Source: a virus. Taken from it: DNA of 64,000 nt. The DNA is taken from positions 3,367 to 67,366 of IMG/VR virus record IMGVR_UViG_3300033571_010557. The stretch is one strand, 5' to 3'. Numbering within the stretch: the stretch's first letter is position 1; each line of letters opens with the position of its first letter. The position numbers and the translations under genes were made by a program. The notes under the pieces were generated by a model that was given only the letters and a program-made list of their open reading frames with translations, did not search any database and was not told the DNA's origin. Positions 20,089 to 64,000 of the stretch are shown here, piece after piece.

Positions 20089-20121
20089 CCCACCAAACCA
20101 ACACCACATATATACGACTCC

Positions 20122-21564
20122 ATGAAAGGAATCATCGCTCAAGACGTCACTCGCATGCTGAAGAGAGGCCTTAGCCTCTCCGAACGCACTATGGGGGGCG
20201 TCCTCTCTGAATCCAACGGTTCGTTAGTGAAGGCAGAAGGCTGGAAGGAAATGGTAGAGTCCATCTCCAATCCTGAACGCCGCGCTTTCGTTGCGAACAT
20301 GCTGGAAAACTACCGTCAGGCTCGCCAGCAGCTTGATGAAACCACCACCTCGCTGACTGTCGGTAACTTCGACAAGTACGCCTTCCCGCTCATCTCCATC
20401 GTCTCGGAGAATATGATCGCGCAGGATCTTGTTTCGGTTCAGCCGATCGAAGGCCCGTCCGGTCACATCTTCTTCGTCAACCTCGTTACTGGTCAGACGA
20501 AGGGCAACGTGCCTAAGGGTACCCCAATCTGGGACGCCCGTACTGGCCGTGCTGATCGCTCGGATACCTCTGATGACGCCATCAATGAGGAACACGTCGG
20601 CACTTCAGGTGAAGACGGCTCCCTCGCCGATGTCAACCTGTCCTACACCCCTGTCGTTCCCGGCACGGTTACGGTGCAGTCTGACGACGGTAGCGTTGTT
20701 TACCGTGACAATGGCAATGGCACCCTCCTCAGCGGTGCTACCACCGTTGGTACTGTGGACTACAACACTGGCGCGGTTACGTTGAATACCAGTGCTGCTG
20801 CAGACACCGTCTTCACGGCGAGCTACAACACCAACACCGAACTCAACGGTGAGGCCCAGATGCTCGACATCGAAATCCAGCACGCCCCGGTGTTCGCCAA
20901 GGAACGCAAGATGCGCATCCGCTGGTCCACGGAAGCCGCTCAGATCATGGATGCCCTGCATTCCGTGAACGCTGAGAATCTCCTGACGACCTCGGTGACC
21001 AACAACATCAACTGGGAAATCGATCGCGAGATCATCGAGGACCTCCGTCGTGGTGCCTCCGCTGGTACCGTGAACTGGAGCGCTACTCCTCCTACTGGTC
21101 AGACCATCGGTTATCAGGAGCACAAGCTCTCGTTCGTTGACGCTCTGGTGTACGCCTCCGGTTACATCAGCCGCGCCACGAACCGCGTTCGTGCAAACTG
21201 GGTTGTCGCCGGTCAGAACGGTGCCAACGTCATCGAAACCCTGCCTCAGTTCGAACCCTCCGATGCGGATCTTACCGAAATCGAAGGTGTTTGCTACCTC
21301 GGCAACCTTGGTCGCCTCAAGGTTTACGCTGATCCGCACTACGTCCAAAACGAGTGCCTTGTCGGCTACAAGGGTAAGGACTTCACCCGTGCGGGCTACG
21401 TTTACGCCCCATGGCTGCTCCTGTTCTCGACTCCGACCATCACCCTCGACGACTTCATCAATCGTAAGGGTATGGCATCGAGCTACGGCAAGAAGATGAT
21501 CAACAGCCGCTTCTACTCCAAGATCAAGCTGTCGAATTTCTCTGACCAGTTTGGGGAAGCCTAA
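20122..21564 (+). CDS. Major capsid protein, T4 gp23-like
   Basis: DLVSVQP..GPSG.IF, AKERKMRIRWS.E.AQ, EIDREII, YVYAPW; strong codon bias. Confidence 0.93.
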   Translation: MKGIIAQDVTRMLKRGLSLSERTMGGVLSESNGSLVKAEGWKEMVESISNPERRAFVANMLENYRQARQQLDETTTSLTVGNFDKYAFPLISIVSENMIAQDLVSVQPIEGPSGHIFFVNLVTGQTKGNVPKGTPIWDARTGRADRSDTSDDAINEEHVGTSGEDGSLADVNLSYTPVVPGTVTVQSDDGSVVYRDNGNGTLLSGATTVGTVDYNTGAVTLNTSAAADTVFTASYNTNTELNGEAQMLDIEIQHAPVFAKERKMRIRWSTEAAQIMDALHSVNAENLLTTSVTNNINWEIDREIIEDLRRGASAGTVNWSATPPTGQTIGYQEHKLSFVDALVYASGYISRATNRVRANWVVAGQNGANVIETLPQFEPSDADLTEIEGVCYLGNLGRLKVYADPHYVQNECLVGYKGKDFTRAGYVYAPWLLLFSTPTITLDDFINRKGMASSYGKKMINSRFYSKIKLSNFSDQFGEA

Positions 21565-21590
21565 TCGATCACGACCGATAAAATAACTTG

Positions 21591-21622
21591 GCGGCGTTCT
21601 CGAAAGGGAACGCCGCTTTTTT
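21591..21622 (+). terminator. Intrinsic terminator
   Basis: GCGGCGTTCTC-GAAA-GGGAACGCCGC followed by TTTTTT. Confidence 0.9.
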
Positions 21623-21637
21623 ACATCTAAAAAGTAC

Positions 21638-21666
21638 TTGACAAGACTCATGTGGTATGTTAAAGT
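21638..21666 (+). promoter_or_regulatory. Early promoter
   Basis: TTGACA-17-TAAAGT, ATG at 21672. Confidence 0.75.
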
Positions 21667-21671
21667 ACGGC

Positions 21672-22151
21672 ATGGAAAACGTTATTACTAGGTATTTCTT
21701 CAAAATTTGGTGCAAGACCACCAAGCGGCCTTCGGGAGTTGGATTCAACGCTGGCGTTATGACCTTCGCCAGTCCAGAACAAGCCATCGAGTGGAGGGAG
21801 AAGCATCCAGAAGATTTTCTCCCTAAAACTGAGACCTTCGCCAAGCATCTTGACTGTAGCAGGGTGTTCCTCGTGAGGTCCAAGGTCATTGATACTATCG
21901 TTGAATGTGACTCCCTCAACGCTGACTCCTTCAAGGAGGATGACTCTAATGATCTAGAGGAGGTTCACGCCCTGCGTGCTGCCCGAATTGCGTACGCTAA
22001 GGAGTTTCCGTACAGGGATGGCGAGCCTGATGTCGGGAGTATTCACGAGAACATTCGTGATTTGAAAAAGAAGTTTAATCGTCTGAACGATGAATATAAC
22101 CAACTTCGACGCCACCATAACCAACACTGCCACTGCTCTGAAATCTACTAA
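21672..22151 (+). CDS. Hypothetical protein
   Basis: ORF behind the promoter. Confidence 0.7.
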   Translation: MENVITRYFFKIWCKTTKRPSGVGFNAGVMTFASPEQAIEWREKHPEDFLPKTETFAKHLDCSRVFLVRSKVIDTIVECDSLNADSFKEDDSNDLEEVHALRAARIAYAKEFPYRDGEPDVGSIHENIRDLKKKFNRLNDEYNQLRRHHNQHCHCSEIY

Positions 22152-34997: not shown

Positions 34998-35026
34998 TTG
35001 ACAAGAAGCGGATTTTGTGTTAAAAT
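34998..35026 (+). promoter_or_regulatory. Early promoter
   Basis: TTGACA-17-TAAAAT, ATG at 35033. Confidence 0.8.
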
Positions 35027-35032
35027 TAACAC

Positions 35033-36217
35033 ATGTCCCCTCAATCCATCAAAGTCGAAAGCAGGCCGTATCAAACGGAAATTCTGAAAGACCTCACTCA
35101 CGCCATCGAGTCCGGCATCACCTCGGTGATTGTTGACTCGCCAACTGGCTCCGGTAAGACTTTCATGGGTCTGGAAGCTTGCCGCAGGATGGTCACTGAA
35201 ATCCTCCCCAAGCTCCATGGGGTAAGCCCTGACGAAATTGGGGTGGCTTGGATTGCGATGCGTTCCAATCTGCTCACTGCCACCAACGAGGTCAATTCCA
35301 GGTACTTCATCGAGGAAATCACCGAACCCGGACAGTTCTGCCCGAATCTGCACACTGTTTCGATGTTCCAACGTGACTCTAAGTTCATGCGGAAGTACAA
35401 GATTCGCATTGCCGTCATGGACGAAGCCCATCACGACACCACGGAGTCGATGGCAAGGGTTTACGGGGATATCGACCCCCAGTACTGCATCGGTCTTACC
35501 GCGACCCCATTCCGTATGGACCAGAATCGCCTCGGATTCCAAAAGGTCATCAAGAAGGCTGGATACCGCTATCTTATCGATGACGGCTATTTGGCTGGAT
35601 TCAATCACTGGTCCATCACCAATGAGTGGAGTCCAGAGGCCGTTGCCAATACCTACCTTGAGAGTCCTGACGCTTGGGGTTCCAGCGTGATGTTCTTCCT
35701 CAACCGTGAAGAATGTGAGACTGCCAGCCGAGTTCTCACCGAAGGGGGCGTCTCCAATACCATCGTCCACGGCGAGTCTGATCGGGAGTCCCAAATCGAA
35801 GATTTGCAGAATGGTAAGGTCCAGGTCGTCATCTCAATGGCCATCTTGGCTGAGGGGTTCGACTTCCCCGCCCTGCAGTCGGTATTCGTTCGGGACTCAC
35901 AGAGCAAGGGTCTTGTCATGCAGATGGCAGGCCGAGCGCTTCGCAAGTTCACCATGCCGGATGGGAAACAAAAGGTGGCAAACGTCATTCAGAGTTCCAA
36001 GTCGCACTACCCATTCACCCGCTTCGCTCGTGCTCGGAACCAGTATGTGAAATCGAACGGTCGTTGGTCTTCTATTAAACCGAATGACAACGTTGAGAAG
36101 CACGTCGAAATCTCCCTCAAGGGCCTCGTGGTGGCCAAGGTCGATAAGAGTTCTCTCGATCGACTTCGTAAGAACATGAAAACCAAGAGGGTCTGGAAGA
36201 ATACGGACAATATCTAA
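35033..36217 (+). CDS. SF2 helicase (ResIII/DEAH-type)
   Basis: RPYQ, SPTGSGKT, DEAHH, GLTATPFR, EGFDFP, QMAGRALR. Confidence 0.92.
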   Translation: MSPQSIKVESRPYQTEILKDLTHAIESGITSVIVDSPTGSGKTFMGLEACRRMVTEILPKLHGVSPDEIGVAWIAMRSNLLTATNEVNSRYFIEEITEPGQFCPNLHTVSMFQRDSKFMRKYKIRIAVMDEAHHDTTESMARVYGDIDPQYCIGLTATPFRMDQNRLGFQKVIKKAGYRYLIDDGYLAGFNHWSITNEWSPEAVANTYLESPDAWGSSVMFFLNREECETASRVLTEGGVSNTIVHGESDRESQIEDLQNGKVQVVISMAILAEGFDFPALQSVFVRDSQSKGLVMQMAGRALRKFTMPDGKQKVANVIQSSKSHYPFTRFARARNQYVKSNGRWSSIKPNDNVEKHVEISLKGLVVAKVDKSSLDRLRKNMKTKRVWKNTDNI

Positions 36218-37506: not shown

Positions 37507-38358
37507 GTGGAGAATTTAAATACAGCAGGCTCAAAGGACCTAGCGAAGCCTATACACCCGAAGGCTCTCATCCCTCAAGACTGGGACTTCGGGAGTGTTC
37601 TCAAATCAGCCCAAGACGGTACCCCAGGTAAGGACTCTAGAACCTTCATACGATTCTATGACAGAGCGGTAAGGAATTGGCTTCAGCAGACCACTATAAT
37701 GAACGGTCATAAGATACCGGTCATAAAATCGATGCCCAGAAAAGCTTTCGCAGAGTACGACCGGTTGTTGAAGGAGCAAGGGAACTTTCAGATGACTGGG
37801 GAGACCGCCATGAATGATATTAAGAGGCCCCCACTTCCTCTTATTAGTATATCAAGATCTAAACTACAGATAAGATCGTGGGGTAGATCAGTCTTTCCAA
37901 ACAGGAATTTGGCGTTCATCAATGGAGCGCATGACAATAAATCTGGAGACCTTCGTCGAGCAACCGTATACAGTAGAAGGCCGACACCAGTTGACATACC
38001 ATATTCTATAGAGATATGGACCACTTATGAGGCGCAGCACGCATGGGTGGCCCAGCAACTTCTCTCTAGCTTCTGGAATAATATCGCCCATTGGGAGACT
38101 TCCGATCCCTACTCAGGTGAGCAAACATTTCAGGTACCGATCCGCCTAAACTCCTTCACGGATAACAATGAGATACCAGAGAACGATTCAGACGCTAATC
38201 ATAGATGGACTATTGATATAACCGTTGAGGGCTGGATGTTCCATGATTTGTTGCTGGCCCCGACAGTACAGATAGGTACCAATATCATAGACATAGATGA
38301 GAAGTCTGACTCAGACGATGAGAGTTTAACCACAGAATTGACTTCTCTAGCCCCATGA
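37507..38358 (+). CDS. Tail terminator/sheath stabiliser, T4 gp15-like
   Basis: IPVI, LPLISISR, PTPVDIPYSIEIWT, ITVEGW. Confidence 0.65.
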   Translation: MENLNTAGSKDLAKPIHPKALIPQDWDFGSVLKSAQDGTPGKDSRTFIRFYDRAVRNWLQQTTIMNGHKIPVIKSMPRKAFAEYDRLLKEQGNFQMTGETAMNDIKRPPLPLISISRSKLQIRSWGRSVFPNRNLAFINGAHDNKSGDLRRATVYSRRPTPVDIPYSIEIWTTYEAQHAWVAQQLLSSFWNNIAHWETSDPYSGEQTFQVPIRLNSFTDNNEIPENDSDANHRWTIDITVEGWMFHDLLLAPTVQIGTNIIDIDEKSDSDDESLTTELTSLAP

Positions 38359-38933
38359 GAATACTGACTCAGAGAATATTGACTTCATTGGCACCTGTGC
38401 CATTGAGTGAACAAAATTATACTGGAGAGGTTCCGGAGGCATTTGTAACTTTGTCCTTGTCACCTTCGATAAGTCTATCTCTATCTCCATCTACCTCTGC
38501 ATCGGCCTCTGGCCCTAGCCCTTCGGCCTCTGGCCCTAGCCCTTCGGCCTCTGGCCCTAGCCCTTCGGCCTCTGGCCCATCCCCCTCTGCATCGGCCTCT
38601 GCATCTGCATCGGCTTCTGGCCACAGTCCTTCGGCTTCTGGCCCATCCCCCTCTACATCGGCTTCTGGCCCAAGTCCTTCGGCTTCTAGCCCTAGCCCGT
38701 CCCCATCTTATTCCATTTCTCCTTCCGGACCGTCTCCTTCCGGACCGTCTCCTTCCGGACCCTCTTATAGCCCATCTTATTCCATTTCTCCTTCCGGACC
38801 ATCTCCCTCTCCTTCCGGACCGTCTCCTTCCGGACCCAGTCTTTCTATTAGCCCAAGTCCTTCTATTAGCCCAAGCCCATCACCTAGTCCATCTGGACCC
38901 AGTCCTTCACCCAGTCCTTCACCAGACCCATGA
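38355..38933 (+). CDS. Ser/Pro-rich mucin-like protein
   Basis: About 150 aa of SASGPSP/SGPSP repeats after a short unique N-terminus; ATGA-coupled on both sides. Confidence 0.75.
   Translation: MRILTQRILTSLAPVPLSEQNYTGEVPEAFVTLSLSPSISLSLSPSTSASASGPSPSASGPSPSASGPSPSASGPSPSASASASASASGHSPSASGPSPSTSASGPSPSASSPSPSPSYSISPSGPSPSGPSPSGPSYSPSYSISPSGPSPSPSGPSPSGPSLSISPSPSISPSPSPSPSGPSPSPSPSPDP
38500..38925 (+). repeat. Degenerate 15-21 bp tandem repeats encoding Ser/Pro
   Basis: CGGCCTCTGGCCCTAGCCCTT and TCTCCTTCCGGACCG units. Confidence 0.9.
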
Positions 38934-39424
38934 ATAACCGCGTAATATGGGTTATGGGTCTGTCAGGGACTGGCAAGACCACCACTATAACCGAGTACTC
39001 TAAGAGGAACGATGCGATCTACATTGACACCGATGATCTACGTGTCACGATGAACAGTGACCTCGGGTGGGGTAAAGATGATCGGTTGGAAAATGTCAGA
39101 AGATACGCTGAGTTGGCGAAGGCAATTTCAGTTCAAAGGGAGGTAATCGTTGGATGTACTACTCCAATGAAATTACAAAGAGAACTGCTGAAAAAAATTC
39201 TGCATAACCTGATCTTGGTTGAATTGGTTTGTAATCGGGATTTATTGGTTGATAGAAGTGTAGGGAATTATTACCGCAGATGCGGAGTCGATGACAGGGT
39301 CCCGTCATTAGCAGGGGTAAACTTTGAATACGAACCAACCGAGCATGGGGAGGCGAATTTCGTGTTTGACACCGGTGTGACATCGACGGAAGACATTCTA
39401 GAAGAACTAAGGAGGACAAAATGA
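38930..39424 (+). CDS. Adenylyl-sulfate kinase-like P-loop kinase
   Basis: IW..GLSGTGKTT, D.DDLR...DLG..K.DR.EN.RR.AE.AK, AGV...YEP. Confidence 0.75.
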   Translation: MNNRVIWVMGLSGTGKTTTITEYSKRNDAIYIDTDDLRVTMNSDLGWGKDDRLENVRRYAELAKAISVQREVIVGCTTPMKLQRELLKKILHNLILVELVCNRDLLVDRSVGNYYRRCGVDDRVPSLAGVNFEYEPTEHGEANFVFDTGVTSTEDILEELRRTK

Positions 39425-55208: not shown

Positions 55209-55759
55209 CGGATCATGACAATCGAATCAATCATTTCCCAAGCCAACTCAAGCCATGAAGAACTGAAAGAGCACCTCAAGGAAAGCCTTGCTCTATCTGT
55301 CTCACTTCTCGAAGCAGCACTCTCCCACGGAGCGACAGTGGAATTTTTCACGTACGATAGGGCGAGTGTCACCCTCGGCAAGGGTGATGACGCGGTATCC
55401 TTCTGCGTGTCGAATCAAGGTAATTTTTGGGAACTTGGATGGATTTAATCCTCATAAACACCTTCATGAAAGTCATCACCTCCCTTTCCACGCACAACGT
55501 CAAGCTTTCCCGCTCATCACGTTTCTGTTCGTTTCTTGTGTCTGCACAGTTTCCCACGGCTAACGGTGGTATTACTGCTCAGCAGTCACGCAGTTTTAAG
55601 CTTCCTTGCTACAAGACTTCACATAAGCGCCACCCTCTTTACCAGACGTTCCTGAACGGTGCGATTAGCACGCTGGCGCAAGAAGCAGGATTGCCAAGTT
55701 ATGCGCTCCCCGTTGTAATGAGCGTTCAATAACAACCCATTTGACGCTAACCCGTCGAT

Positions 55760-55794
55760 AACCAAACCAAACCAAACCAAACCAAACCAAACCA
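55760..55794 (+). repeat. (AACCA)x7 microsatellite in a 5' leader
   Basis: Read directly. Confidence 0.95.
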
Positions 55795-55807
55795 CACGTA
55801 TAGAAAT

Positions 55808-56173
55808 ATGCAGACCCAGACCCACGCTAAAAATCGTTTCCTTCGTCGAATCCAGAATCGTCGCCTCGGCAAGGGCAATCCGGACTTCGGAAAGCCTATT
55901 ACCGGTGTCATGACCGAAGCTGAGATTGCCCGCAAGCAACGCCGGAAGGCCGCTCGCCACTTCAACCTTCAACGCCGAATCAAGGACACCGAGTACTCGA
56001 TTCAGAAGCTGACTGAGGAGCACAATCTGCTCGCAGGGGCCAGCGGCAATGACAAGCGCGAGAAGGATGAGATTCAGAAGATCAAGTCCAAGATGCGGGA
56101 ACTCTCGTACAGCATCGACAAACGCAATGAAGAGCTTTCTCGCCTGAAAAAGTCCTTCTCCGTTATCCACTAA
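55808..56173 (+). CDS. Basic coiled-coil protein
   Basis: ORF with optimised codons, followed by a hairpin. Confidence 0.75.
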   Translation: MQTQTHAKNRFLRRIQNRRLGKGNPDFGKPITGVMTEAEIARKQRRKAARHFNLQRRIKDTEYSIQKLTEEHNLLAGASGNDKREKDEIQKIKSKMRELSYSIDKRNEELSRLKKSFSVIH

Positions 56174-56198
56174 CACCCGGTTTGTGTGTGACATGACA

Positions 56199-56228
56199 CC
56201 CCCGGCCACCCTAAAGGTGGCCGGGGGT
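56199..56228 (+). terminator. GC-rich hairpin
   Basis: CCCCGGCCACC-CTAAA-GGTGGCCGGGG. Confidence 0.7.
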
Positions 56229-56534
56229 TAATACAGTCAACGAAGTATGAGACAAGAATTATTATGGATGCCAAGAGGGGTACACGCAGGTACTTATGCT
56301 CTCAAATGCTCCGTGGCATACAATGGACCTGAGCCTGACAGGATTTGGACTCTCTACCTGCACACCGATCAGAACTCTCCGCCGTCATTACCGTTTAGAG
56401 CGTACCATCATCAAAACGCCTTCCTTGAGGATAAGGCCCACGATTGGAATATCAGGGATAGGGTTTTGAATTACTTCTCCAGAGCTAGTGAGGGTGGAAA
56501 TTGGCTCTTACTCGAATTTAAGCCTAAATAAATC

Positions 56535-56684
56535 ATGACTGATTCATCACCATACAGACAAGGCGTAGCCGCTCACCGTGCGGGATTTTGGTTTGACGCA
56601 AATCCTTTTCCAGCTACTTCCGCAGAGTTTCGGGAGTGGGAAAGGGGAATGAGCGCGGCTTGCGCAGATTTTTGGCTGGATTAA
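56535..56684 (+). CDS. Rmf/CrpP-like small protein (49 aa, not in the ORF track)
   Basis: YRQGVAAHRAG....ANPF......REWERG pattern. Confidence 0.55.
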   Translation: MTDSSPYRQGVAAHRAGFWFDANPFPATSAEFREWERGMSAACADFWLD

Positions 56685-56710
56685 CCCTTGACTTTTCTTT
56701 CTCGCCATCG

Positions 56711-57116
56711 GGGGAACTATAAAGCGCACACACAGAAGGGGCGGGAGCGCGGCCCCGATAACACCCAAGACTAAAAATATGGAAACACCTATCGAAAACA
56801 ATGCGGCCCCTTCTGTTGATGTGCCGCGCCTTGTTCGTCCGAGTTGGGTGGACACTTGCACGTGCATCCGTGTGGCCGTGGAAGTCTCTCCATGCCGCCA
56901 AAACGAATCGCCTGACAGCTATCGGAACCGATGGAAGCAGACCGTGCAATCCGCCTACGAGCGTGGCGCGGACTGGAACTATGATGCCGACTGCCCGCTC
57001 TGCTACTGCGGCGACATCTCTGGGACGAACGACCCACATCAGGCGACGGCGAGCGATGGACGCCCGCAGACATGACAGATGAGCTACGAGCCGTTGCCTG
57101 CATGTGATGGTTCTCT
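56711..57116 (-). mobile_element. Two attC-like sites (56711-56839, 57024-57116) flanking one 313-bp cassette
   Basis: AAC...GTT imperfect hairpins with bulged bases; cassette ends GTTCGTCC/GGACGAAC are complementary. Confidence 0.8.
56779..57075 (+). CDS. Cassette-borne Cys-rich hypothetical protein
   Basis: Starts in the loop of one site and stops in the loop of the next. Confidence 0.65.
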   Translation: METPIENNAAPSVDVPRLVRPSWVDTCTCIRVAVEVSPCRQNESPDSYRNRWKQTVQSAYERGADWNYDADCPLCYCGDISGTNDPHQATASDGRPQT

Positions 57117-57387
57117 GACGTTGGTCTAAAGCCCCCGAAAATAAAGTTACGAAAAGTTACATTTAGCGTTTGACTCTCTGTAACCTTGGGTTACTATCTC
57201 TCACCATGAGCAAAACATCAATCGCCCCCCACATCGCAATCGAAAAGATCAAAATCAACGGTCTTACATTTAATGTCATGCAATCCTTCACTCCAGAGCA
57301 AGTCGCCGCTCGCGGTCGTGAAAACACCCCTCTTTTTAGCGAATAATCCTCCTAGGTAATTATCCCCATATAATCATTACGGGATAC

Positions 57388-57416
57388 TTGACAAATTCGC
57401 TTTCTTGTGTTAAAAT
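57388..57416 (+). promoter_or_regulatory. Early promoter
   Basis: TTGACA-17-TAAAAT. Confidence 0.8.
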
Positions 57417-57457
57417 GCTGGGTGGTCATTCGACCCTCCTCATTAACCAACACCGCC

Positions 57458-58564
57458 ATGAATAGCATCCCCACCATCAAGTCCATCTCCGCCCCCATCT
57501 CCGCCATCTCCTACACCCCGTCTTATCGCGAGAGCGGTGTCCTCACTCCCGCCCGCATCGCGGTCGATGGAATGGAACTGGAGAGCACCAATCGCATGCG
57601 TGATTCGATGCTCGGCCTCATCGGCCAGTCCCACAGCATCTTCCGCCTCTTCTCTCCGACAGAAGTGTTCAACAAGTTCCAGGCCATCAACGGCTCGAAG
57701 GTGGTCAACATCAACTTCGAAGAGGAATCTGGCCGCGCCATCAGCTTCACCAGTGGCTCCAAAGGCATCATCGACTTTGGTAACCTCCGCAACGATGTGA
57801 TCGGCGATGCCGCCGTCTCCTACAAGGATGGCGTGCTCTACACCACTCTGGAGCCATTCCGCACCGAAGGCTTCATCATCAACAACGACCAGCACCTTCC
57901 CCGCCTCTCCCTGCAGATCCCCCTCGATGGTTACGGCAGCATCCAAAGCTGGCTCGCCATGCTCCGTCAGATCTGCTCGAATGGCATGGTTGCCATGGGA
58001 CGCGCCTTCCGCCACACCGTTTCCGTTGGTGATGGTGATAATCCCATCGCCACGGTTCGTCGCTTCAAGAACAGCTTCTACGATGAAGACGGCTACGCTG
58101 ATCTTCGCAACCGCCTCGAAGCTGCTGGAAAGACAGCCGCTTCCATCAGCGAGTTCGTCCGCCTCCTTCGCATCGCTCAATCCGACACCACCAATTTCTC
58201 GATTGGCCTCATCGGTAAGATCGAACAGGCTGTCTCCCAGACGCAGACCTACTACGGCCTCAGCGCCCTGAACGCAATGGACGAGAAGCGCTCCCGCCTC
58301 ACTCCCTCCCTCCTCACGGTGTACGATCTGATCAACATGTCCACTGAGCTTTCCACTCACGTGACTGATAACCCCTACGTCGCTACGAAGCTGCAGGGTC
58401 TGGTCGGTGATTTCCTCAGCAACCAGTTCGATCTGGAAGGTCTGGAGTCCACCATCGAGGTCACCGAGAAGTTCTCCCCTACCTTCTTCGTCAGCGAGGA
58501 AAGCGTTTACGGAGTCAACCGCAGCGGGTTCGGCAATCCTAAGGACCTCGCTCTGGAAGCTTAA
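57458..58564 (+). CDS. DUF932-like protein, highly codon-biased
   Basis: DG.GS......R.ICSNGM motif; own promoter and terminator. Confidence 0.6.
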   Translation: MNSIPTIKSISAPISAISYTPSYRESGVLTPARIAVDGMELESTNRMRDSMLGLIGQSHSIFRLFSPTEVFNKFQAINGSKVVNINFEEESGRAISFTSGSKGIIDFGNLRNDVIGDAAVSYKDGVLYTTLEPFRTEGFIINNDQHLPRLSLQIPLDGYGSIQSWLAMLRQICSNGMVAMGRAFRHTVSVGDGDNPIATVRRFKNSFYDEDGYADLRNRLEAAGKTAASISEFVRLLRIAQSDTTNFSIGLIGKIEQAVSQTQTYYGLSALNAMDEKRSRLTPSLLTVYDLINMSTELSTHVTDNPYVATKLQGLVGDFLSNQFDLEGLESTIEVTEKFSPTFFVSEESVYGVNRSGFGNPKDLALEA

Positions 58565-58580
58565 TTCAGGAGACATGAGA

Positions 58581-58612
58581 GAGGCCGGTCATTCGAAAGG
58601 GTGACCGGCCTC
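58581..58612 (+). terminator. Hairpin terminator
   Basis: GAGGCCGGTCATTC-GAAA-GGGTGACCGGCCTC. Confidence 0.8.
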
Positions 58613-58629
58613 AACGTAGTTATCATTCC

Positions 58630-59075
58630 ATGAAACGGAATGTATCTGAAACCGCCTCCAAGTTCCTCAATATAGTTAGTTCGCCCACTATAGAGATAAG
58701 GGAGCCAGCGGATAAACCAATCACGGACCCATCTAGGTTAGTCCAGGGTGGTTGAGTCCAAGTGGTAAATTATTCGAGACAGGCTCCCATAGGGCTACAG
58801 CGATGAAGATGGTTCAATACGACGACCGAAATTTCTCGCATATGGAACATTTGGAGAGGAACGGGTGGGTTAGGATAGCCATCACAAGAATTGATAACGA
58901 ACACGATATATTTATCACATCTAAGAGCTTGCCTACACAGGCACAACGCAAATTCCTTAAGTCTTATATTGAGAACCATGATCGCAACTTCTTTGGATCA
59001 TGGGATGTAGTTTATCTAGCGCCTGGAGGGCTGAAGGATGATATGCTGGGAACGCTCCCGGAGGAGGAGGGTTAG
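58630..59075 (+). pseudogene. Probable frameshifted gene (58630-58755 plus 58737-59075)
   Basis: ATG with late-type motif; GWLSPSGK continues in the -1 frame, which has no ATG before that motif. Confidence 0.45.
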
Positions 59076-59439
59076 TAGGGGGTGAATAAATGATTTCTTT
59101 GGCCTATGAGCCAATAATTTGACCACAAAGTTAATGATCGAACTCACACATCGCGAATACAGGCTGCTCACCCGAGCGGAATCGGAAGCCAAGGCTAACC
59201 TTGGTATGCACACGGGAGGGCCACACGAGGCTGAATACCGGGTGTTCCTTCAAGACCTCAGACGAGTCATCTTGAAGATCAAGCATGGCGGCAATGAGCG
59301 TCCTGAGAAGGCCCGTCGCCGAGAGAAGAAAGTAACCCAACTGTCAGGGTGGCAAGGGCCTATACCTGATACAGACTACGACGATTGAGAAGCATCGCTG
59401 ATACGACAGGCAGACGACGCACGAGCGCTTCATGAATTG

Positions 59440-59760
59440 ATGAAGACATACCAGGTATACATCGCCAGATGTTCAGATGGATCTTTATATACCGGATTTA
59501 GCGATGACCCGGTGAGAAGATGTCGGGTTCATAACTCGGGAAAGGGTGCCAAGTACACTAGATCAAGGCTTCCTGTTGAATTAGTATGGGTTAGTGAACC
59601 GTACTACGATGTTTCCACAGCCATGTCCTTTGAACGGAGTATAAAGAAAATGAGCAGAAAGAAGAAGCTGAAGATTGTGACACGCGAAACACATGCATGT
59701 CAGCGTCTCGACGATCAAATCCACGCCGAGCAATTGAGTCAGGCGAACCGTCAAAGATGA
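59440..59760 (+). CDS. GIY-YIG nuclease (YhbQ/UPF0213-like) fused to a cassette tail
   Basis: VYIARCSDGSLYTG.SDD..RR...HN.GKGAKYTRSR.PV. Confidence 0.88.
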   Translation: MKTYQVYIARCSDGSLYTGFSDDPVRRCRVHNSGKGAKYTRSRLPVELVWVSEPYYDVSTAMSFERSIKKMSRKKKLKIVTRETHACQRLDDQIHAEQLSQANRQR

Positions 59761-59769
59761 GGCGACCGC

Positions 59770-60036
59770 ATGAGCGCGACTGACCAACATAGCACCCACA
59801 ACGCAACCGCGAATGCGGTTGCCTCCAGCGGCATGGTATGTGCCGCCCGTCGGAAAAAGCCAGCTCGCCACATGAGCGCAAGAAATGCGGATGGCTGGGC
59901 ATGGGTCAAGTGCGGTAGAAAAGCAGTGACCGTGAGTGAGTTTGGCAAACCGCTTTGTCGTCAGTGTTCACATACCGATAAAACTCTGGCGACGGGAGGG
60001 GCGGCGATGCGCTCCGACGAAGCCGGGAAACTCTGA
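59770..60036 (+). CDS. Cassette ORF, Cys-rich
   Basis: Starts and stops within attC-like loops; PLCRQC. Confidence 0.6.
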   Translation: MSATDQHSTHNATANAVASSGMVCAARRKKPARHMSARNADGWAWVKCGRKAVTVSEFGKPLCRQCSHTDKTLATGGAAMRSDEAGKL

Positions 60037-60049
60037 ACTCAAAAATAGC

Positions 60050-60361
60050 ATGGATAAAACAAAACAGACCCCTCCCGTTGCCAGCAGTGCCCTTGTTCGG
60101 CCTTTGCCGAAGTCGGGCGTGGCGGACTGCCCATCTTGCGGTTGCAAACAGACAGTGAAGCGCCACAACGCCGACTGGACATGCTACAAATGCTGGTTCC
60201 ACGAGACGGTCGATGAGGATAAAGAGATGGAACGCGAAATCACTGACATGCTCATGGAGTGCGTCGATTGGCTGGGGCGAAACCCGGCAATAAAACCCGA
60301 TCCTCGCGTGTGGCAACACCTAGCGGTGTATTGGCCGAACGTCAAAAATCAGGCACCATGA
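60050..60361 (+). CDS. Cassette ORF, Zn-ribbon protein
   Basis: MDKTKQ start in the loop; CPSCG...CYKC; ends PNVKNQAP. Confidence 0.65.
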   Translation: MDKTKQTPPVASSALVRPLPKSGVADCPSCGCKQTVKRHNADWTCYKCWFHETVDEDKEMEREITDMLMECVDWLGRNPAIKPDPRVWQHLAVYWPNVKNQAP

Positions 60362-60594
60362 GCACAGGACGACACCAACACGACAGGCAGCCTACGAATG
60401 GTTGCGTGCATTTTTCTTGTTCGCATGCGGCTTGGTGGGATGCTGGATGGTTGCGTTGTCACTACAAATGGATTGGTCCTCATATTTGGATCGAGCATGG
60501 CAAGTTTATGAAGATTGTGACACGCGAAACACATGCATGTCAGCGTCTCGACGATCAAATCCACGCCGAGCAATTGAGTCAGGCGAACGATTAA
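60358..60594 (+). CDS. Cassette ORF
   Basis: ATGA-coupled inside the site; ends QAND. Confidence 0.5.
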   Translation: MSTGRHQHDRQPTNGCVHFSCSHAAWWDAGWLRCHYKWIGPHIWIEHGKFMKIVTRETHACQRLDDQIHAEQLSQAND

Positions 60595-60748
60595 GCGCAG
60601 TGAACCGCGAGCACAAAGCTATGAAAACACCTCAGATGGCTACGAGCGGTTCACGGCCGCGCCTGGTTCGGGCGTGTCCGTGCTGCGGTGTCCGCAAATA
60701 CCCGCACCGAGCATGGTGCCCAAACCCGCCAATCATGCGCCTACCAAA

Positions 60749-60964
60749 ATGAATATCGGAGAGATCATCATTGCCGCCGTCATCCGCGCTGCGGCCATCG
60801 AGAACGCTGTCACGCACGAGGACGGCGGATGGATATTCGTGTGGTCGGCAAACGCAGCAGAGCAGATCGAAGCCGCGCTACACGAGGCTGGCTACACGCT
60901 CTGCCCGAACGTCAAAAATCAGGCACGCGAACCCAGTGCGCCTGATACTGCCAAAACCGAATAG
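60749..60964 (+). CDS. Cassette ORF (second in its cassette, after 60621-60752)
   Basis: MNIGEIII...PNVKNQARE... Confidence 0.6.
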   Translation: MNIGEIIIAAVIRAAAIENAVTHEDGGWIFVWSANAAEQIEAALHEAGYTLCPNVKNQAREPSAPDTAKTE

Positions 60965-61010
60965 AGCGTTGCCTGCATTTTCTTTGTTCTCCGACGATTT
61001 ACCCAAGACT

Positions 61011-61262
61011 ATGGACCCACTACAAGACAACTTCCAAGCACTTCCTGAATGGCTGAAACACGCCTACCACAACGACAGCGCAGTGAATCGCGTCGTCAAA
61101 GACTGGCGCATGACATCGAAGCCGCTCGCTTCTCTCTACGAAAGTCTGGCAATGCGGATGTATGAACTCAAGAACCACTGGCAGGCTACGGCGGAGCATC
61201 ACGCATCTCGTGCGCCCGCTGTTGTCGCGATGCCTTCGGAGAATGACCAAGGTATGCCATGA
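61011..61262 (+). CDS. Cassette ORF
   Basis: MDPLQDNF...SENDQGMP. Confidence 0.65.
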   Translation: MDPLQDNFQALPEWLKHAYHNDSAVNRVVKDWRMTSKPLASLYESLAMRMYELKNHWQATAEHHASRAPAVVAMPSENDQGMP

Positions 61263-61662
61263 ATGCCGCGCCCTCCAGTTCCGTAGCGCCAATGACTCCA
61301 ACGCGGCAGTCATTGGCGTCTCCGTCTGGTTCTGGCGGGGGTTTGCATTGGGCGCAGATCATGGCACGCGATCTTGGCATTGTGTCTGGCTGGCGACGTT
61401 CGCACACAACTCAATGCTCGTCAGTGCGCCAGGCCGAAATCCTGGAAATGTGATTGAGCGGATGCCTGAACTCATCGCCTCTGCGCGGGCGGCATACGGA
61501 CCAAATGCAATCACACGCTGGGACGGCCTGCAATTCCTCGGCGCGGTCTGTGTGCCTAACGCTGCTGCTGAGACACGGCGGGAATAAAACTTTGACCCTG
61601 CTAGAGACTGCATCCCGCCGTTGTCTCTAGCAGCTTTGTTCGGCGGGTTTGGAATCACGACT

Positions 61663-61902
61663 ATGCTAACTGAAATCATACCTGAAATCATCGAAGAACC
61701 AATCAAAGCCGGATGCGCTCCGGGCAACGAAACCATCGGCTACCTCGCCGGTGAAATCTCACGACTACGGGCTGAACTGCGGAACATCGCCACTGCGAAG
61801 CCACGCGAATGGGGAGAGATGTCCGACCAGTTCCAGCCGTGGGCGCAGAATCGCGCAAGGGCCGCGCTGACTCCGCCGAACGTCAAAAATCAGGCACCAT
61901 GA
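61663..61902 (+). CDS. Cassette ORF
   Basis: MLTEII...ARAALTPPNVKNQAP. Confidence 0.65.
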   Translation: MLTEIIPEIIEEPIKAGCAPGNETIGYLAGEISRLRAELRNIATAKPREWGEMSDQFQPWAQNRARAALTPPNVKNQAP

Positions 61903-62017
61903 GTACAGGACGACACCAACACGAGCAGCAACCTTCGAATGGTTGCCTGCATTTATTTTAATTCAGCGATGAAGGCCGAAAATTAGAGTGGACTTCTTCT
62001 TTTCCTAGTTATAGGTT

Positions 62018-63265
62018 ATGGCAGAAGTCCACCCGTTCGATCTTACTAACATAAACAACACTCAGATAAATGATGCAGCGCTCGCTAAGCGTATCATGGT
62101 CGATGTTGGTACCGTTGGTGTTGGAGTGTCAGCGTCTCTTTACGCAACACCGGAGCAGATTCTCCAGATGGGTGCTGACATCGGCTCGACCAACAACGCA
62201 ATATTAAGGTCGAAGCCAAATGGCACGAAGAAGGCAGCTTATTCAGTGGTTACACTGGATGATGTCGGTAACATGGGGGGGATAAACGCTGCCAGATTCT
62301 CCACGAGTCCAACAAGCGTTCCTACCACAGTCGGAACCATGTCGTGGGATGATGGTAATGGATCTCTCTCACTCACGCTGAAGGGTGGCAACGTCAATCA
62401 GGTGATAGGCCAGGATGAAATCCACCTTTGCCATAACTCATCTGCCTCAGTCGCCTTATCGAAGGGGAACGTGGTTAAGATTGTGGGGGCGCAAGGTAAC
62501 AGAATTTCAGTGGCTAAGGCTCAGGCTAATAGTGAGGCCAACTCCGTTCACACTATTGGATTCGTTGCTGAGTCAATTTCCACTCTGTCAGAGGGATTCG
62601 TGATTAGCTCCGGGTTGATCAAAAATCTCGATACCAGATACGACAGTCACGGCTCGTCATTCTCAGCCGGGGATACGGTTTATCTGTCTCCAACTATCGC
62701 CGGTGGCTTCACAAAGACTAAACCTTCGGCACCCGATCAGACGGTAATAATTGGGTTTGTAGTCAGGGTTCATCAGTCTGTCGGGTCTATTTTCATTAAG
62801 GTCGATAATGGATACGAGATAGATGAACTTCATAATGTCAGTTCCACCGGTTCCGGTTCTGCCTTCCTGATCAGGAATGACTCTACCAATCTTTGGGAAG
62901 ACAAGACTCCTGCCTCAGCCAGAGATGTAATAAACGGAGCGGCAACTGCTAACTCGGTAACCACTGCTAACTACACGCCTGCTCTCACGGATGTACAGGA
63001 TTACATACTGATGAATTACACTGGCGGTCCTCAGAGTGTAACTATACCGACCAACGGCTCCGTTCCCTTCCCTGTTGGAACTACCCTGAACATCATTCAA
63101 AAGAGTGAGCAACAAGTAACCATAGAAACATCAGTAGGAGTTATCCTGAGAGTAAGAGGTTACGGAAACGCTATCGCCGGTCAGTGGGGTGTAGCAGTTC
63201 TCATAAAGATAGACACAAATGAGTGGGTGCTCACTGGAGATATAACATACATTCCTATCTCATGA
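62018..63265 (+). CDS. Virion fibre/decoration-type protein
   Basis: Gly/Ser/Thr-rich; A.A.SE...T.G, G..YLSPT.AG..T.TKPSAP, C-terminal T.P...FP.G..I.Q...W...GD; late-type motif upstream. Confidence 0.7.
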   Translation: MAEVHPFDLTNINNTQINDAALAKRIMVDVGTVGVGVSASLYATPEQILQMGADIGSTNNAILRSKPNGTKKAAYSVVTLDDVGNMGGINAARFSTSPTSVPTTVGTMSWDDGNGSLSLTLKGGNVNQVIGQDEIHLCHNSSASVALSKGNVVKIVGAQGNRISVAKAQANSEANSVHTIGFVAESISTLSEGFVISSGLIKNLDTRYDSHGSSFSAGDTVYLSPTIAGGFTKTKPSAPDQTVIIGFVVRVHQSVGSIFIKVDNGYEIDELHNVSSTGSGSAFLIRNDSTNLWEDKTPASARDVINGAATANSVTTANYTPALTDVQDYILMNYTGGPQSVTIPTNGSVPFPVGTTLNIIQKSEQQVTIETSVGVILRVRGYGNAIAGQWGVAVLIKIDTNEWVLTGDITYIPIS

Positions 63266-64000
63266 TTTCCTCAGCCAGAAGAAGATCGATCATAGAAGTT
63301 CAGCCTTACGGTGACTTGAGCGCTTTATATTATGGTGCTATCAATGGTGATGTAGTAAGGCCGATACACTTAAGAATCTTCGACCAGACTTCCAATGGTT
63401 ATGGAATTACCCTTGAACAAGCGGGTGCAGCAAACGGGATGTTGATAATAGAGTCATGCACTAGCAGTCCAGCTGGTCCGTCTTTTATCGACATTAATAT
63501 AGGAGTAGAGCCTATTCCCCCTAGGGTAATAGACATGATAGGTACTGATATCGGGGGTATAAGCAGTAACAGTGGTTATTCTTCCTCACAAACAGTAGTC
63601 CTTAATGGTTATTCAAGATTCAATTCGAAGCCGCATGTTGGTGAGTTAAATTTTCAGTCTCCAAACATTGATTCTCCGCCCATTGCGCTCCTCCAGGCTG
63701 ACAATATCGAGTTCGATGTCGTATACATGAACGGTTCACAAGCCCAGGGTGGAGACAGTGGTACTGGTGGGACCCATGATAACGGAAGTGACGGCGGTGA
63801 TGGTCTCCCAGAGGAAATGTACCAAAGCCCTACAGGTGGAGAGAGCGGTGGGGGCGGTGGTACCGGTGGGAGTGGTGGAGATGCAGGTCCTGGCATTGAC
63901 GCAACTTCTGCTGGGGGGTCTGTTCACATGACTGACTGCGTGAGATCCGAACTCAGACTTCATGGGGGGAATGGTGGCAGTGGAGGGGTAGGCGGATCTG
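63262..64000 (+). CDS. Gly-rich probable fibre protein (3'-truncated)
   Basis: Frame open from ATG 63262 to the window end, GG.GG.GG repeats. Confidence 0.7.
   Translation, partial: MISSARRRSIIEVQPYGDLSALYYGAINGDVVRPIHLRIFDQTSNGYGITLEQAGAANGMLIIESCTSSPAGPSFIDINIGVEPIPPRVIDMIGTDIGGISSNSGYSSSQTVVLNGYSRFNSKPHVGELNFQSPNIDSPPIALLQADNIEFDVVYMNGSQAQGGDSGTGGTHDNGSDGGDGLPEEMYQSPTGGESGGGGGTGGSGGDAGPGIDATSAGGSVHMTDCVRSELRLHGGNGGSGGVGGS

Follow-up and report, generated by a model that had tools for sequence, protein, structure and literature searches.

Results

Hairpin sites and genes of the two arrays

The window (the whole 64-kb stretch of phage DNA analysed in the current study) contains, between 56.7 and 62.0 kb, ten imperfect hairpins with the anatomy of integron attC sites, all on the plus strand and split between a mini-array of two sites (56.7-57.1 kb) and a main array of eight (59.7-62.0 kb), with cassette units of approximately 235-360 nt (Table 1). 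The last ~29 codons of the GIY-YIG nuclease gene are a remnant of a second copy of cassette J (repeat D3). A tail gene (62018-63265) directly follows S10, where a 20-codon remnant ORF starts at 61899.

Table 1. Sites, open reading frames and duplicated segments of the two arrays, in window positions. R1 is the covariance model described in the text; a hyphen within a protein ending follows the Asn codon of the core.
Feature	Position	Strand	Remarks
S1, long-loop attC-like site	56709-56841	+	First of the two-site mini-array; core AAC 56715-56717; identified by fold; missed whole by R1; ATG 56779 in its loop
ORF a, 98 aa, Cys-rich	56779-57075	+	Starts in S1 loop; AAC 57028 in frame; stop in S2
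S2	57022-57118	+	Closes mini-array; R1 68.6 bits; phage backbone directly after
GIY-YIG nuclease gene	59440-59760	+	PF01541, 59 bits, residues 4-77; stop in S3
Cassette J 3'-end copy, exact 80 nt	59669-59748	+	100% to 60509-60588; ends ...GGCGAAC
S3, diverged S5-type attC	59741-59843	+	Decayed right core; R1 22.5 bits, E 0.0027
ORF h, 88 aa	59770-60036	+	Start in S3 loop; stop in S4
S4, long loop and 16-bp apical stem	59975-60103	+	Inverted repeat I11; identified by fold; likely core ACC 59974-59976
ORF i, 103 aa, zinc ribbon and helices	60050-60361	+	Start in S4 loop; ends ...WPN-VKNQAP in S5
S5	60332-60427	+	R1 87.9 bits; core AAC 60338-60340; ATGA overlap 60358
ORF j, 78 aa	60358-60594	+	Start in S5 loop; ends ...QAN-D in S6
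S6	60580-60674	+	R1 62.6 bits; core AAC 60586-60588
ORFs k and l	60621-60964	+	k 60621-60752, starts in S6 loop; l 60749-60964, ends ...CPN-VKNQARE... inside S7; ATGA overlap
S7	60902-60994	+	R1 71.5 bits; core AAC 60908-60910
Cassette M, one unit	60910-61243	+	From C of S7 AAC to AA of S8 core; ORF m 61011-61262
S8, weak attC	61236-61337	+	R1 15.6 bits, E 0.11; core AAT 61242-61244; ATGA overlap 61259
ORFs n and o	61259-61587	+	n 61259-61453, start in S8 loop; o 61465-61587, ends ...VPN-AAAETRRE in S9
S9, best-folding site	61552-61646	+	z -5.25, 0/200 shuffles equal; R1 71 bits; core AAC 61558-61560; two single-base bulges in right arm
ORF p, 79 aa	61663-61902	+	Starts 16 nt past S9; ends ...PPN-VKNQAP in S10
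S10, terminal S5-type site	61873-61969	+	Decayed right core; R1 56.2 bits; 85% to S5 over 96 nt

In single-strand folds the sites are closed by a CGAAC/GTTCG helix, which leads over a small internal loop into a long stem with unpaired bases in the 3' arm; the terminal loops are unrelated from site to site. Folding energy alone is not striking (z from -5.3 to +0.3 over the ten sites, five of which were beaten by no more than 4 of 200 shuffles), and therefore the case for attC sites rests on conservation. The RNAalifold consensus of eight sites comprises 20 pairs, 12 of them with compensatory changes, a 4/4-nt internal loop equivalent to the unpaired spacer, and two unpaired right-arm columns, 76 (T) and 83 (mostly C), spaced by 7 nt. 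The AAC (columns 7-9) pairs with GTT (columns 93-95) in all eight aligned sites. Bulged bases in the right arm of the plus strand, as originally predicted, were thus recovered both in the folds and in the consensus. With lengths of 91-133 nt, the sites have the inverse AAC/GTT cores closing a hairpin of 55-141 nt that are required for membership, together with the extrahelical bases on the arm opposite AAC, the unpaired spacer and the variable terminal loop expected of attC.

The covariance model R1 was built from eight window sites. Over the 64-kb window it recovered eight plus-strand sites at E <= 0.11 (57022-61969) and, outside these, scored nothing better than E 0.48; the long-loop sites S1 and S4 were not recovered whole. 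For S4, ACC 59974-59976 is supported as the likely core by the family consensus AACGAT and by a contig that breaks at 59976, and the candidate AAC at 59982 was dropped. Rfam is not known to hold an attC family. Membership in attC rests on the model made here and on linkage to intI. R1 gave no match in 1.06 Mb comprising 80 loci of phages with a related tail protein, and consequently no syntenic empty site was available for comparison.

Relation to a chromosomal integron and polarity of the sites

R1 had 31 matches, of the same site family, in a Verrucomicrobiota genome (G002), in which one contig (G002:C368) carries an intI gene followed by five R1 matches at 55-82 bits. This intI scored 263 bits against TIGR02249 on its own and 318 bits with the neighbouring stretches (cut-off 265). 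Sites of the same family do therefore lie beside an integron integrase gene, in a bacterial genome and not in the phage. In a Verrucomicrobiota array (L105), intI is encoded on the minus strand with its 5' end facing the array, the cassette ORFs (151-201 aa) lie on the plus strand pointing away from intI, each followed by a site, and R1 matches the minus (intI) strand at 74-82 bits compared to 14-16 bits on the plus strand. Because the model matches the strand opposite the cassette genes, the plus strand of the window corresponds to the canonical bottom strand. The claim that the canonical top strand is the minus strand was thereby settled without depending on bulges alone. The bottom-strand rule and the unpaired bases on the arm opposite AAC are given in the available text of Nivina 2016 (PMC5027507). 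Three agreeing lines, namely the intI array, the bulge arm and the natural breakpoints presented below, identify the plus strand of the window as the recombinogenic bottom strand.

No PF00589 match was found in the 67-kb record. This record is just 33% complete, which leaves room for an integrase in the remainder of the phage genome. No tyrosine recombinase was found either in a complete 64.5-kb phage (G003), which carries three such arrays on both genome strands, with the ORFs on the bottom strand each time. Considering its eight R1 matches on one strand, the window meets the definition of a cassette cluster lacking an integrase (CALIN: two or more attC sites on one strand, separated by <4 kb, without an integron integrase in the vicinity). 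It does not meet that of a complete integron, with intI and attI adjoining the array, given that phage genes border the arrays at S2 and S10 and no attI-like end was seen at either site.

Natural variants and the swap point

Natural variants were drawn from a two-locus alignment, four other sequencing runs and a 334-nt contig; window parts without contig cover in runs X2, X3, X4 and X6 were left uninterpreted. Two loci (L088 and L107) are 100% identical over 419 columns up to ...GGCGAACG and then diverge. Contigs of runs X3, X4 and X6 leave the window at 57028, 60331/60341, 60910 and 61243/61245: contigs of three runs exit at 57028 and 57120 (S2) and at 60331 and 60341 (S5), exact contig matches begin at 60910 in three runs (S7), and the S8 breakpoints are 61243 and 61245, with a C/T difference at 61244. 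The 334-nt contig, from run X4, equals exactly 60910-61243, that is, the single cassette M, and cassette J occurs intact and joined directly to S3 in contigs of three runs (joint 60508>59669). The 80-nt duplicate of the cassette J 3' end also ends at AAC. Even between neighbouring hairpins that do not resemble each other, breaks occur at a single triplet, with loose ends at 60341. Cassettes thus move as units bounded between AA and C on the bottom strand, and the swap point is the left-arm AAC, where the original prediction had placed it, and not the right-arm GTT.

Crossovers at this point are, however, insufficient on their own to account for all the variants. The proteins P0002 and P0004 keep their bodies (84 and 94% identical) with unrelated loop-encoded N-termini, and some contigs join S6-like left halves to S2-like right halves. 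These replaced N-termini and mosaic hairpins imply some exchange or turnover within the hairpin or to the right of it.

Coding strand and gene products

The bottom strand is open across the whole body in 24/24 small units from the window and related contigs, and the top strand in 9/24, which supports the view that all genes run antisense to the canonical attC polarity. Of 20 chromosomal units, one has a fully open bottom strand and 15 have a top strand that covers 85% or more of the body. The canonical arrangement of a gene on the top strand upstream of its attC is not met in the window, where ORFs extend across the sites.

Bottom-strand ORFs of related arrays matched PF00145 (93 bits), PF01555 (69 bits) and PF24591 (55 bits); the products encoded there include DNA methylases and a YunG-like protein. 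The ORF i family has 39 representative clusters at E <= 1e-3, and relatives of ORFs i, a and m are 62-95% identical, with conserved Cys motifs. The fold predicted for ORF i (pLDDT 80.8) retrieved only generic zinc-ribbon structures (E >= 0.06). Searches of the window ORFs yielded only GIY-YIG, DUF932 and sub-threshold zinc-ribbon matches in Pfam, the tail protein alone in PHROGs and nothing meaningful in PADLOC. No match to positions 56001-64000 was detected by blastn in 50,697 phage records, and the related-locus search of IMG/VR with the ORF i alignment and ORF a returned no relatives.

Reading frame at the core and exchange of C-termini

At eight of the nine window junctions with an upstream ORF, the AAC or AAT is an in-frame Asn codon and the stop lies 6-54 nt beyond it (binomial p 0.001 at 1/3), in agreement with the original prediction; the ninth site, S4, is likewise in frame if its core is ACC. 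The rule was maintained in a larger sample of 29 junctions, each with an open upstream frame of at least 150 nt, from the window and nine related loci: the AAC was in frame with the stop beyond it in 23, a TAA or TGA overlapped the core in four, and two were other or unclear. Counting read-through junctions, 23/25 are in frame (p 1.5e-9).

Homologous proteins had also been expected to diverge exactly after the Asn, and this was verified in three families. ORF i and its relatives (95 and 84% identical) share ...WPN and continue into three different tails; the relative of ORF a (P0004, 94% identical) differs before LVRP and after ...GTN; and five of seven members of the ORF m family end in ...SEN followed by five different tails. 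The J body itself ends in ...QAN-D at S6 and in ...QAN-RQR upstream of S3. The frame rule and the swapping of tails are therefore shown by the data, as are the site family, polarity, coding strand and swap point.

The frame of the right-arm GTT is not fixed (5, 16 and 10 in the three frames), according to a rough heuristic that takes the longest downstream frame and chooses wrongly for at least S1 and S5 of the window. A stop in frame 0 is present in 23/25 chromosomal sites without bottom-strand genes (2 and 1 for the other frames), and for this reason the in-frame stop may be inherited rather than an adaptation. The chromosomal top-strand control, in which 12/26 sites had an open frame of at least 150 nt reaching the site, in mixed frames, is flawed, as the second AAC of AACAAAAC was used as core.

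Start codons within the hairpins

The seven ATGs originally assigned to hairpin loops (56779, 59770, 60050, 60358, 60621, 61259, and 61899) all lie inside hairpin sites. A loop ATG occurs in 31/36 small-cassette sites compared to 6/25 chromosomal sites; about half of the genes start at such an ATG and the remainder just behind the hairpin. Purine-rich stretches precede several loop ATGs. ATGA stop/start overlaps are found at 60358, 61259 and 61899, only three of the nine window junctions, and also at 60749 inside a cassette, and stop-to-start gaps of 13-46 nt separate the genes at S4, S6, and S7. Regarding the proposal that each site is both a recombination substrate and a translational-coupling module, the swap at AAC and the exchange of C-termini hold, while coupling has not been demonstrated. 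That the hairpins help to restart translation, and that the array is read within a plus-strand phage transcript, are inferences made without RNA or ribosome data.

Discussion

Our results make it likely that the locus is an integrase-less integron cassette cluster (CALIN) in a large phage, with genes on the bottom strand and the AAC locked in frame. The sites are members of the attC family that also populates the chromosomal integron of a Verrucomicrobiota bacterium. Given that the phage plus strand is the recombinogenic bottom strand, each cassette opens at the C of a left-arm AAC, takes in its own hairpin and then its body, and closes at the AA of the following AAC. The genes are written on the bottom strand, which also carries the flanking phage genes, and each hairpin therefore lies 5' of its gene. 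In nearly all of these genes the AAC at the swap point is an in-frame Asn codon and the stop lies a few codons inside the hairpin of the next cassette, so that a change of neighbour alters the last 1-20 residues with a stop still supplied. A host integron integrase is inferred, from sequence alone, as the swapping enzyme because none is present in the phage record; transcription would proceed within the phage plus strand and the hairpins may aid the restart of translation.

A more far-reaching proposal, for which we consider the chances evenly balanced, is that phages keep their own pool of mirror-image miniature cassettes, in which the attC hairpin has been co-opted as a universal linker between genes. 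As part of this same proposal, the loop would provide its own gene with a ribosome-binding region and a start codon, the left arm would supply, in one fixed phase, the last residues and stop of the upstream gene, and the host integrase could reshuffle small accessory genes without ever breaking the polycistron. Exchange might then occur within and between unrelated phages and with the chromosomal integron of the host, involving methylases, YunG-like proteins, zinc-ribbon proteins and possibly counter-defence genes.

It is possible, although we find it rather doubtful, that the layout is real and the frame lock has no coupling function, merely reflecting the stop phase of the site family, with genes under selection only to end at some point and hairpins idle in translation start. 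The frame-0 stop of chromosomal sites that have no bottom-strand genes, the small number of ATGA overlaps, the gaps at S4, S6 and S7, and the junctions that use their own TAA or TGA at the core (4/29) all agree with such a view. However, it does not account for the excess of loop ATGs over chromosomal sites or for the purine-rich stretches before several of them, and an AAC frame that is fixed beside a GTT frame that is not is what would be expected from selection for interchangeability at AAC.

Repeated hairpins between small accessory genes are also known from T4-type phages as promoter-early stem-loop (PeSL) modules. These carry promoters and are regarded as vehicles of modular shuffling through homologous recombination; neither a link to an integrase nor a fixed crossover triplet is known for them. 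The phage cassettes resemble them in having repeated hairpins between small accessory genes of large phages. Nevertheless, it appears quite improbable that the sites have nothing to do with integrons and are instead regulatory or recombination hairpins of the phage, such as terminators or promoter-stem-loop modules, whose shuffling relies on homologous recombination between conserved arms. The absence of an integrase from the record and from the complete phage is compatible with that origin, and the mosaic hairpins and replaced loops suggest exchange within arms, but the same family, present in 31 copies in a bacterial genome, flanks cassettes beside an integron integrase there, and breakpoints occur at one triplet even between unlike neighbouring hairpins.

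Still less credible is the notion of genuine attC sites whose plus-strand ORFs are not genes, the cassettes being gene-less or coded on the minus strand. These window ORFs had no Pfam match past the family cut-off and no significant PHROGs or PADLOC match, and minus-strand frames of 97-141 aa are present; these frames, however, traverse the hairpins and have low-complexity, Arg-rich translations, whereas every small unit is fully open on the bottom strand, sister arrays carry methylases and a YunG-like protein there, and ORFs i, a, and m have relatives with conserved Cys motifs. The canonical reading (plus strand as top strand, each gene owning the hairpin downstream, crossover between G and TT in the right arm) is just as hard to believe and already contradicted by the present evidence: the stop codon of several ORFs does lie only a few codons inside the hairpin behind them, or is a TAA in the core, as in ordinary cassettes, and S2 and S10 close their arrays with a hairpin like a canonical last cassette, but R1 matches the intI strand in a real integron, the bulges lie on the arm opposite AAC, breakpoints fall at the left-arm AAC, the 95% identical relative of ORF i keeps its loop-encoded N-terminus and changes only its tail, and one J tail occurs in front of two distinct hairpins.

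Integron theory assumes a single entry orientation for reading by the promoter and a gene that forms a closed unit with its attC; the phage cassettes break both assumptions with the same sites and swap point. By using the enzyme of their host, phages would gain a site-specific trade in small accessory genes, proteins arise whose C-termini depend on the neighbouring cassette, and translation, not recombination alone, can shape an attC sequence. Cassette surveys, according to the methods available for one of them (PMC7370490), consider ORFs mainly upstream of attC on the top strand with an attC overlap of at most 50 nt, and would therefore miss or misassign most of these genes.

Phage attC clusters were already known. 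The available text of Qi 2023 (PMC9892861) describes attC clusters without intI in virulent or uncharacterised phages, with DNA methyltransferases among their cargo, and shows, for five sites from other phages, activity of a bacterial integrase. The arrays described here share the lack of an integrase and the methyltransferase cargo, and the main text of that paper, as far as it was available, is silent on bottom-strand genes, starts internal to attC and a fixed crossover frame. The original prediction named no precedent, and our literature search, which did not extend to subscription journals or supplementary files, found no paper on cassettes that are coded on the bottom strand or locked in frame.

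Canonical cassettes, as portrayed in the accessible parts of Nivina 2016 (PMC5027507) and Cury 2016 (PMC4889954), share with the phage cassettes the AAC/GTT cores, the unpaired spacer, the bulge arm, the variable loop, site lengths of 91-133 nt, same-strand arrays and crossover at AAC. The phage cassettes differ in having the site 5' of the gene on the coding strand, ORFs that cross sites and crossover, and units of only ~235-360 nt. The opposite orientation prevents expression from Pc, according to the portion of Nivina 2016 (PMC5027507) that was accessible. Promoter-bearing cassettes of chromosomal integrons, for example toxin-antitoxin (TA) cassettes, are Pc-independent, and a figure legend notes for TA cassettes an "orientation in the array" (Richard 2024, PMC13108822); these are self-contained operons inside the cassette body, and the available sections of that source contain nothing on attC starts or neighbour-dependent ends. 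ORF-11 in attI1, with translational coupling in class 1 integrons (Fonseca and Vicente 2022, PMC8876359), is similar in that a recombination site carries translation signals for the adjacent cassette and cassette expression depends on the neighbour. It differs, within the text available, in being a top-strand attI that serves only the first cassette, provides a start and not a stop, and involves no attC frame rule. At the level of individual bases, the CGAAC/GTTCG cores are one position off GTTRRRY, and the proximal unpaired base is mostly C in the phage sites compared to G in the available text of Nivina 2016 (PMC5027507).

Identification and conservation of the attC-like sites

The small cassettes of this phage are coded on the recombinogenic strand of their attC sites and are frame-locked at the crossover. 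Ten imperfect hairpins of 93-133 nt each (S1 and S2 in a mini-array, S3-S10 in the main array) were recognised on the + strand of the window, all of them combining a CGAAC/GTTCG terminal helix with a small internal loop and a long stem bearing extra bases in the 3' arm, and their loop sequences are unrelated to each other. Because the folding energy of the sites is unconvincing taken alone (z -5.3 to +0.3), the case for them rests on conservation. Eight sites were aligned, with the window contributing five and a viral contig with a common 20-mer the other three. The alignment yielded a consensus of 20 pairs, 12 of which had compensatory changes, and two unpaired right-arm columns spaced 7 nt. 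The covariance model built on this alignment in the orientation of the + strand (R1) matched eight + strand sites within 57022-61969, with no match better than E 0.48 elsewhere in the window and none in 80 loci (1.06 Mb) of phages with a related tail protein. The long-loop sites S1 and S4 were recognised by eye and folding only. In several S7-type sites, the motif GATTTACC occurs 3' of the right arm, approximately 10-20 nt before the next ATG, and it may represent a common leader.

Relationship with integrons and strand polarity

The 20-mer of site S5 was found in 10 metagenome contigs and two genome contigs, and every one of them bears R1 arrays, on one strand each. One of these genomes, a Verrucomicrobiota metagenome-assembled genome (G002), showed 31 R1 matches over many contigs. 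Two of its contigs also matched the integron-integrase family (cut-off of 265 bits): C368 (263 bits alone and 318 bits with the neighbouring stretches) and C10, where the match is partial, lies at the contig end and stays below the cut-off (227 bits). On C368, intI occupies the minus strand and its 5' end faces the array; the + strand carries five ORFs, four of them 151-201 aa long and one shorter, with a site after each. R1 scored 74-82 bits on the minus strand of this array versus 14-16 bits on the + strand. The model derived from the window + strand therefore fits the strand opposite the cassette genes, which identifies the window + strand as the bottom strand. In the accessible portion of Nivina et al. 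(2016; PMC5027507), the bottom-strand attC is described as having a conserved AAC in R', with the extrahelical bases on the arm facing this triplet and a conserved T as the distal one. The window sites agree with that account in the AAC/bulge arrangement and in the T of the distal unpaired column, but their proximal unpaired column is mostly C instead of G. Both lines of evidence, the latter within the limits of the text available from that source, support the original prediction that the + strand, on which the ORFs lie, is the canonical bottom strand. Altogether, the phage carries a genuine attC array, whose site family is common to a Verrucomicrobiota chromosomal integron.

Location of the crossover

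The crossover had been placed in the left-arm AAC, and this position was borne out by breakpoints from several sources. The window has two exact copies of an 80-nt stretch (59669-59748 and 60509-60588), both of which end in GGCGAAC and continue into different hairpins. Likewise, metagenome contig L088 and contig C145 of the Verrucomicrobiota genome (L107) are 100% identical over 419 aligned columns covering one small cassette, up to GGCGAACG, past which they bear different hairpins and unrelated neighbours. In three freshwater runs from another study, contigs place several window cassettes among other neighbours: cassette I is followed by two other hairpins after 60341, another neighbour enters cassette J at 60331, entry into S2 occurs at 57028, and the matches to cassette M run from precisely 60910 to 61243, one 334-nt contig corresponding to just this interval, from C to AA. 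Cassette J was also found intact and directly joined to S3 in the three runs, an arrangement that is interrupted by the GIY-YIG segment in the window phage. The breakpoints sit at the left-arm triplet, and the sole right-side one (57120) is the junction between the mini-array and the phage backbone.

At the right end of both arrays (57120 and 61960-61969), a hairpin (S2 and S10, respectively) abuts a phage gene, hinting that a resident landing site precedes this gene. Array growth could be explained by insertion at the AAC of such a resident site, an inference that fits the terminal hairpins. S2 is intact at the array end, S10 has a decayed right core, and the sequence after S2 in other runs is a cassette body, not backbone. 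The L107 and L088 arrays both finish in GAAC, followed by the same sequence of about 90 nt starting ATTGTTTAGCC; this sequence adjoins DUF1501/PSD1 genes but no integrase, and could be an attI-like or a secondary insertion site.

Coding strand and gene content

Open frames were counted per unit between consecutive sites. In the 24 small units (spacing of 234-502 nt) from the window and from loci L001, L082, L083, L086-L089, and L111, excluding L107, which duplicates L088, and a 560-nt L091 unit, the bottom strand was open over the whole body in all cases and the top strand in nine; being longer than the unit body, the bottom-strand frame extends into the sites. The bacterial-array units (n = 20, spacing of 376-2281 nt) had a fully open bottom strand in one case, and in 15 cases a top-strand frame took up 85% or more of the body. 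Family matches in sister arrays also agree with the proposal that the genes run antisense to attC, since bottom-strand ORFs there matched a phage YunG-like protein (55 bits) and methylases of two types, C-5 DNA (93 bits) and N6/N4 (69 bits), the two methylase ORFs each having their ATG within a hairpin loop. In the window, ORF i is a member of a zinc-ribbon family, for which 39 representative clusters were counted at E <= 1e-3 and 29 of these at 1e-10 or better; its predicted model (pLDDT 80.8) retrieved generic zinc ribbons only in a fold search.

Bottom-strand coding occurs beyond the window as well. A bacterial contig with PSCyt2, PSD1, and DUF1501, genes typical of the PVC group, carries one small bottom-strand cassette among top-strand ones, and locus L111 belongs to another phage, with an SU10-type capsid protein and a weak, sub-cutoff terminase match. 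The complete 64.5-kb phage G003, which has terminal repeats, showed ten R1 matches, which form three arrays and lie on both genome strands; the ORFs are on the bottom strand in all three, and no tyrosine recombinase was found in this genome.

Reading frame at the AAC core

The junction frame was taken as the longest open stretch upstream of a site and kept if at least 150 nt were open, resulting in 29 junctions (nine from the window and 20 from nine other loci); another seven, most of them located at contig starts, fell short of this length and were left out. AAC or AAT was an in-frame codon at 23 of the 29, with the stop 6-57 nt further on, TAA or TGA overlapping the core ended the ORF at four, and the remaining two were other cases (window S4 and one ambiguous L111 site). 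Among the read-through junctions, 23/25 had AAC in frame (p = 1.5e-9 against a one-third chance), so the frame conservation expected at this triplet persisted in the larger sample, even though the counts are not fully independent because the sites form few subfamilies (the bodies are unrelated). One contig breakpoint points to ACC (59974-59976) as the S4 core, with which S4 would be in frame too. At the right-arm GTT, by contrast, a rough heuristic showed no fixed frame. ORF starts are mixed, some with ATG in the loop and others 2-40 nt past the site.

An in-frame stop was present in 35/36 small-cassette sites and in 23/25 chromosomal sites without bottom-strand genes; given its presence in the latter, it may be a family heirloom exploited by these genes. 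ATGA stop/start overlaps occur at three of the nine window junctions. Translational coupling, transcription of the + strand, and an acting integrase are inferred.

C-terminal tails and replacement of loops

One proposed check was whether homologous proteins diverge exactly after the Asn, and such divergence was observed in the families of ORFs i, a, and m. ORF i ends in WPN followed by VKNQAP, in place of which DQRQATASTQP is found in the 95% identical relative and DELTHR in the 84% identical one; ORF a ends in GTN followed by a tail starting DPHQ, where a 94% identical relative has a single I; and five of seven members of the ORF m family end in SEN, then five unrelated tails. One tail type, (D/I)QTQQPHRA, is common to three unrelated proteins.

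In P0002 and P0004, relatives of ORFs i and a, respectively, the body is kept and the loop-encoded N-termini are unrelated up to a conserved LVRP, the translated right core. Moreover, contigs of two sequencing runs carry hairpins whose left half resembles S6 and whose right half resembles S2, the halves being separated by 12-13 other letters, indicating that mosaic or related hairpins exist and hinting at exchange inside the hairpin loops. Taken together, the unrelated N-termini and the half-site joins show that loops are replaced too, by a route not given by AA|C crossovers.

The right core CTTGTTCG (window 60095-60103, 56830-56841, and 60663-60674) reads LVR in several unrelated ORFs and also within RLVRPLP, the most conserved motif of the zinc-ribbon family. 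Either a DNA or a protein constraint may keep it.

Comparison with described cassettes

As far as the available text of Qi et al. (2023; PMC9892861) goes, phage attC clusters without integrase are already known, their cargo includes methyltransferases, and phage attC sites can be recombined by IntI1; however, the cassette layout there is typical, whereas it is reversed in the window. In the available part of a metagenome cassette survey (PMC7370490), ORFs were predicted on the top strand upstream of attC with an overlap of up to 50 nt, and such rules would therefore hide genes like those of the window. No description of bottom-strand-coded, frame-locked cassettes was found in full-text literature searches, within the portions of the sources that these covered.

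Phage setting of the arrays

The window derives from a large phage, since its 67-kb IMG/VR record is rated only 33% complete (CheckV). Long-ORF coding is mostly on the + strand (12,200 aa versus 2,296 aa), and G+C reaches 52-56% at 59-62 kb, compared with about 45% in most of the window. Other G+C-rich islands (0.52-0.56 versus about 0.45) lie at 19000-22000, 35000-36000, and 38000-39000, none of which had a significant R1 match.

Coordinates of features in and around the arrays
Feature	Position	Remarks
DUF932 gene	57458-58564	between mini-array and main array
GIY-YIG nuclease gene	59440-59760	between the two arrays; domain residues 4-77
Tail gene	62018-63265	directly after main array
S6/S2 half-site joins	window 60580-60631 and 57087-57120	runs X3, X4
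Motif GATTTACC	window 60995-61012; L111 9803-9822	contig loose ends at 57120
Arrays of phage G003 (contig C1, L115-L117)	~19.3-20.8 kb, 29.1-30.3 kb, 64.0-64.5 kb	both strands

At 59119-59760, a second cassette J copy has had its hairpin and 5' part replaced by the GIY-YIG gene and an upstream segment, and the nuclease ORF runs on into the cassette J remnant, with its stop in S3; a homing-type insertion into the array could account for this segment. Finally, a run from a different study (X2) contains the backbone flanking the array on both sides, with a likeness of 95-100%, and also parts of the array itself (window 55500-63500), and thus a close relative of the window phage is present elsewhere.
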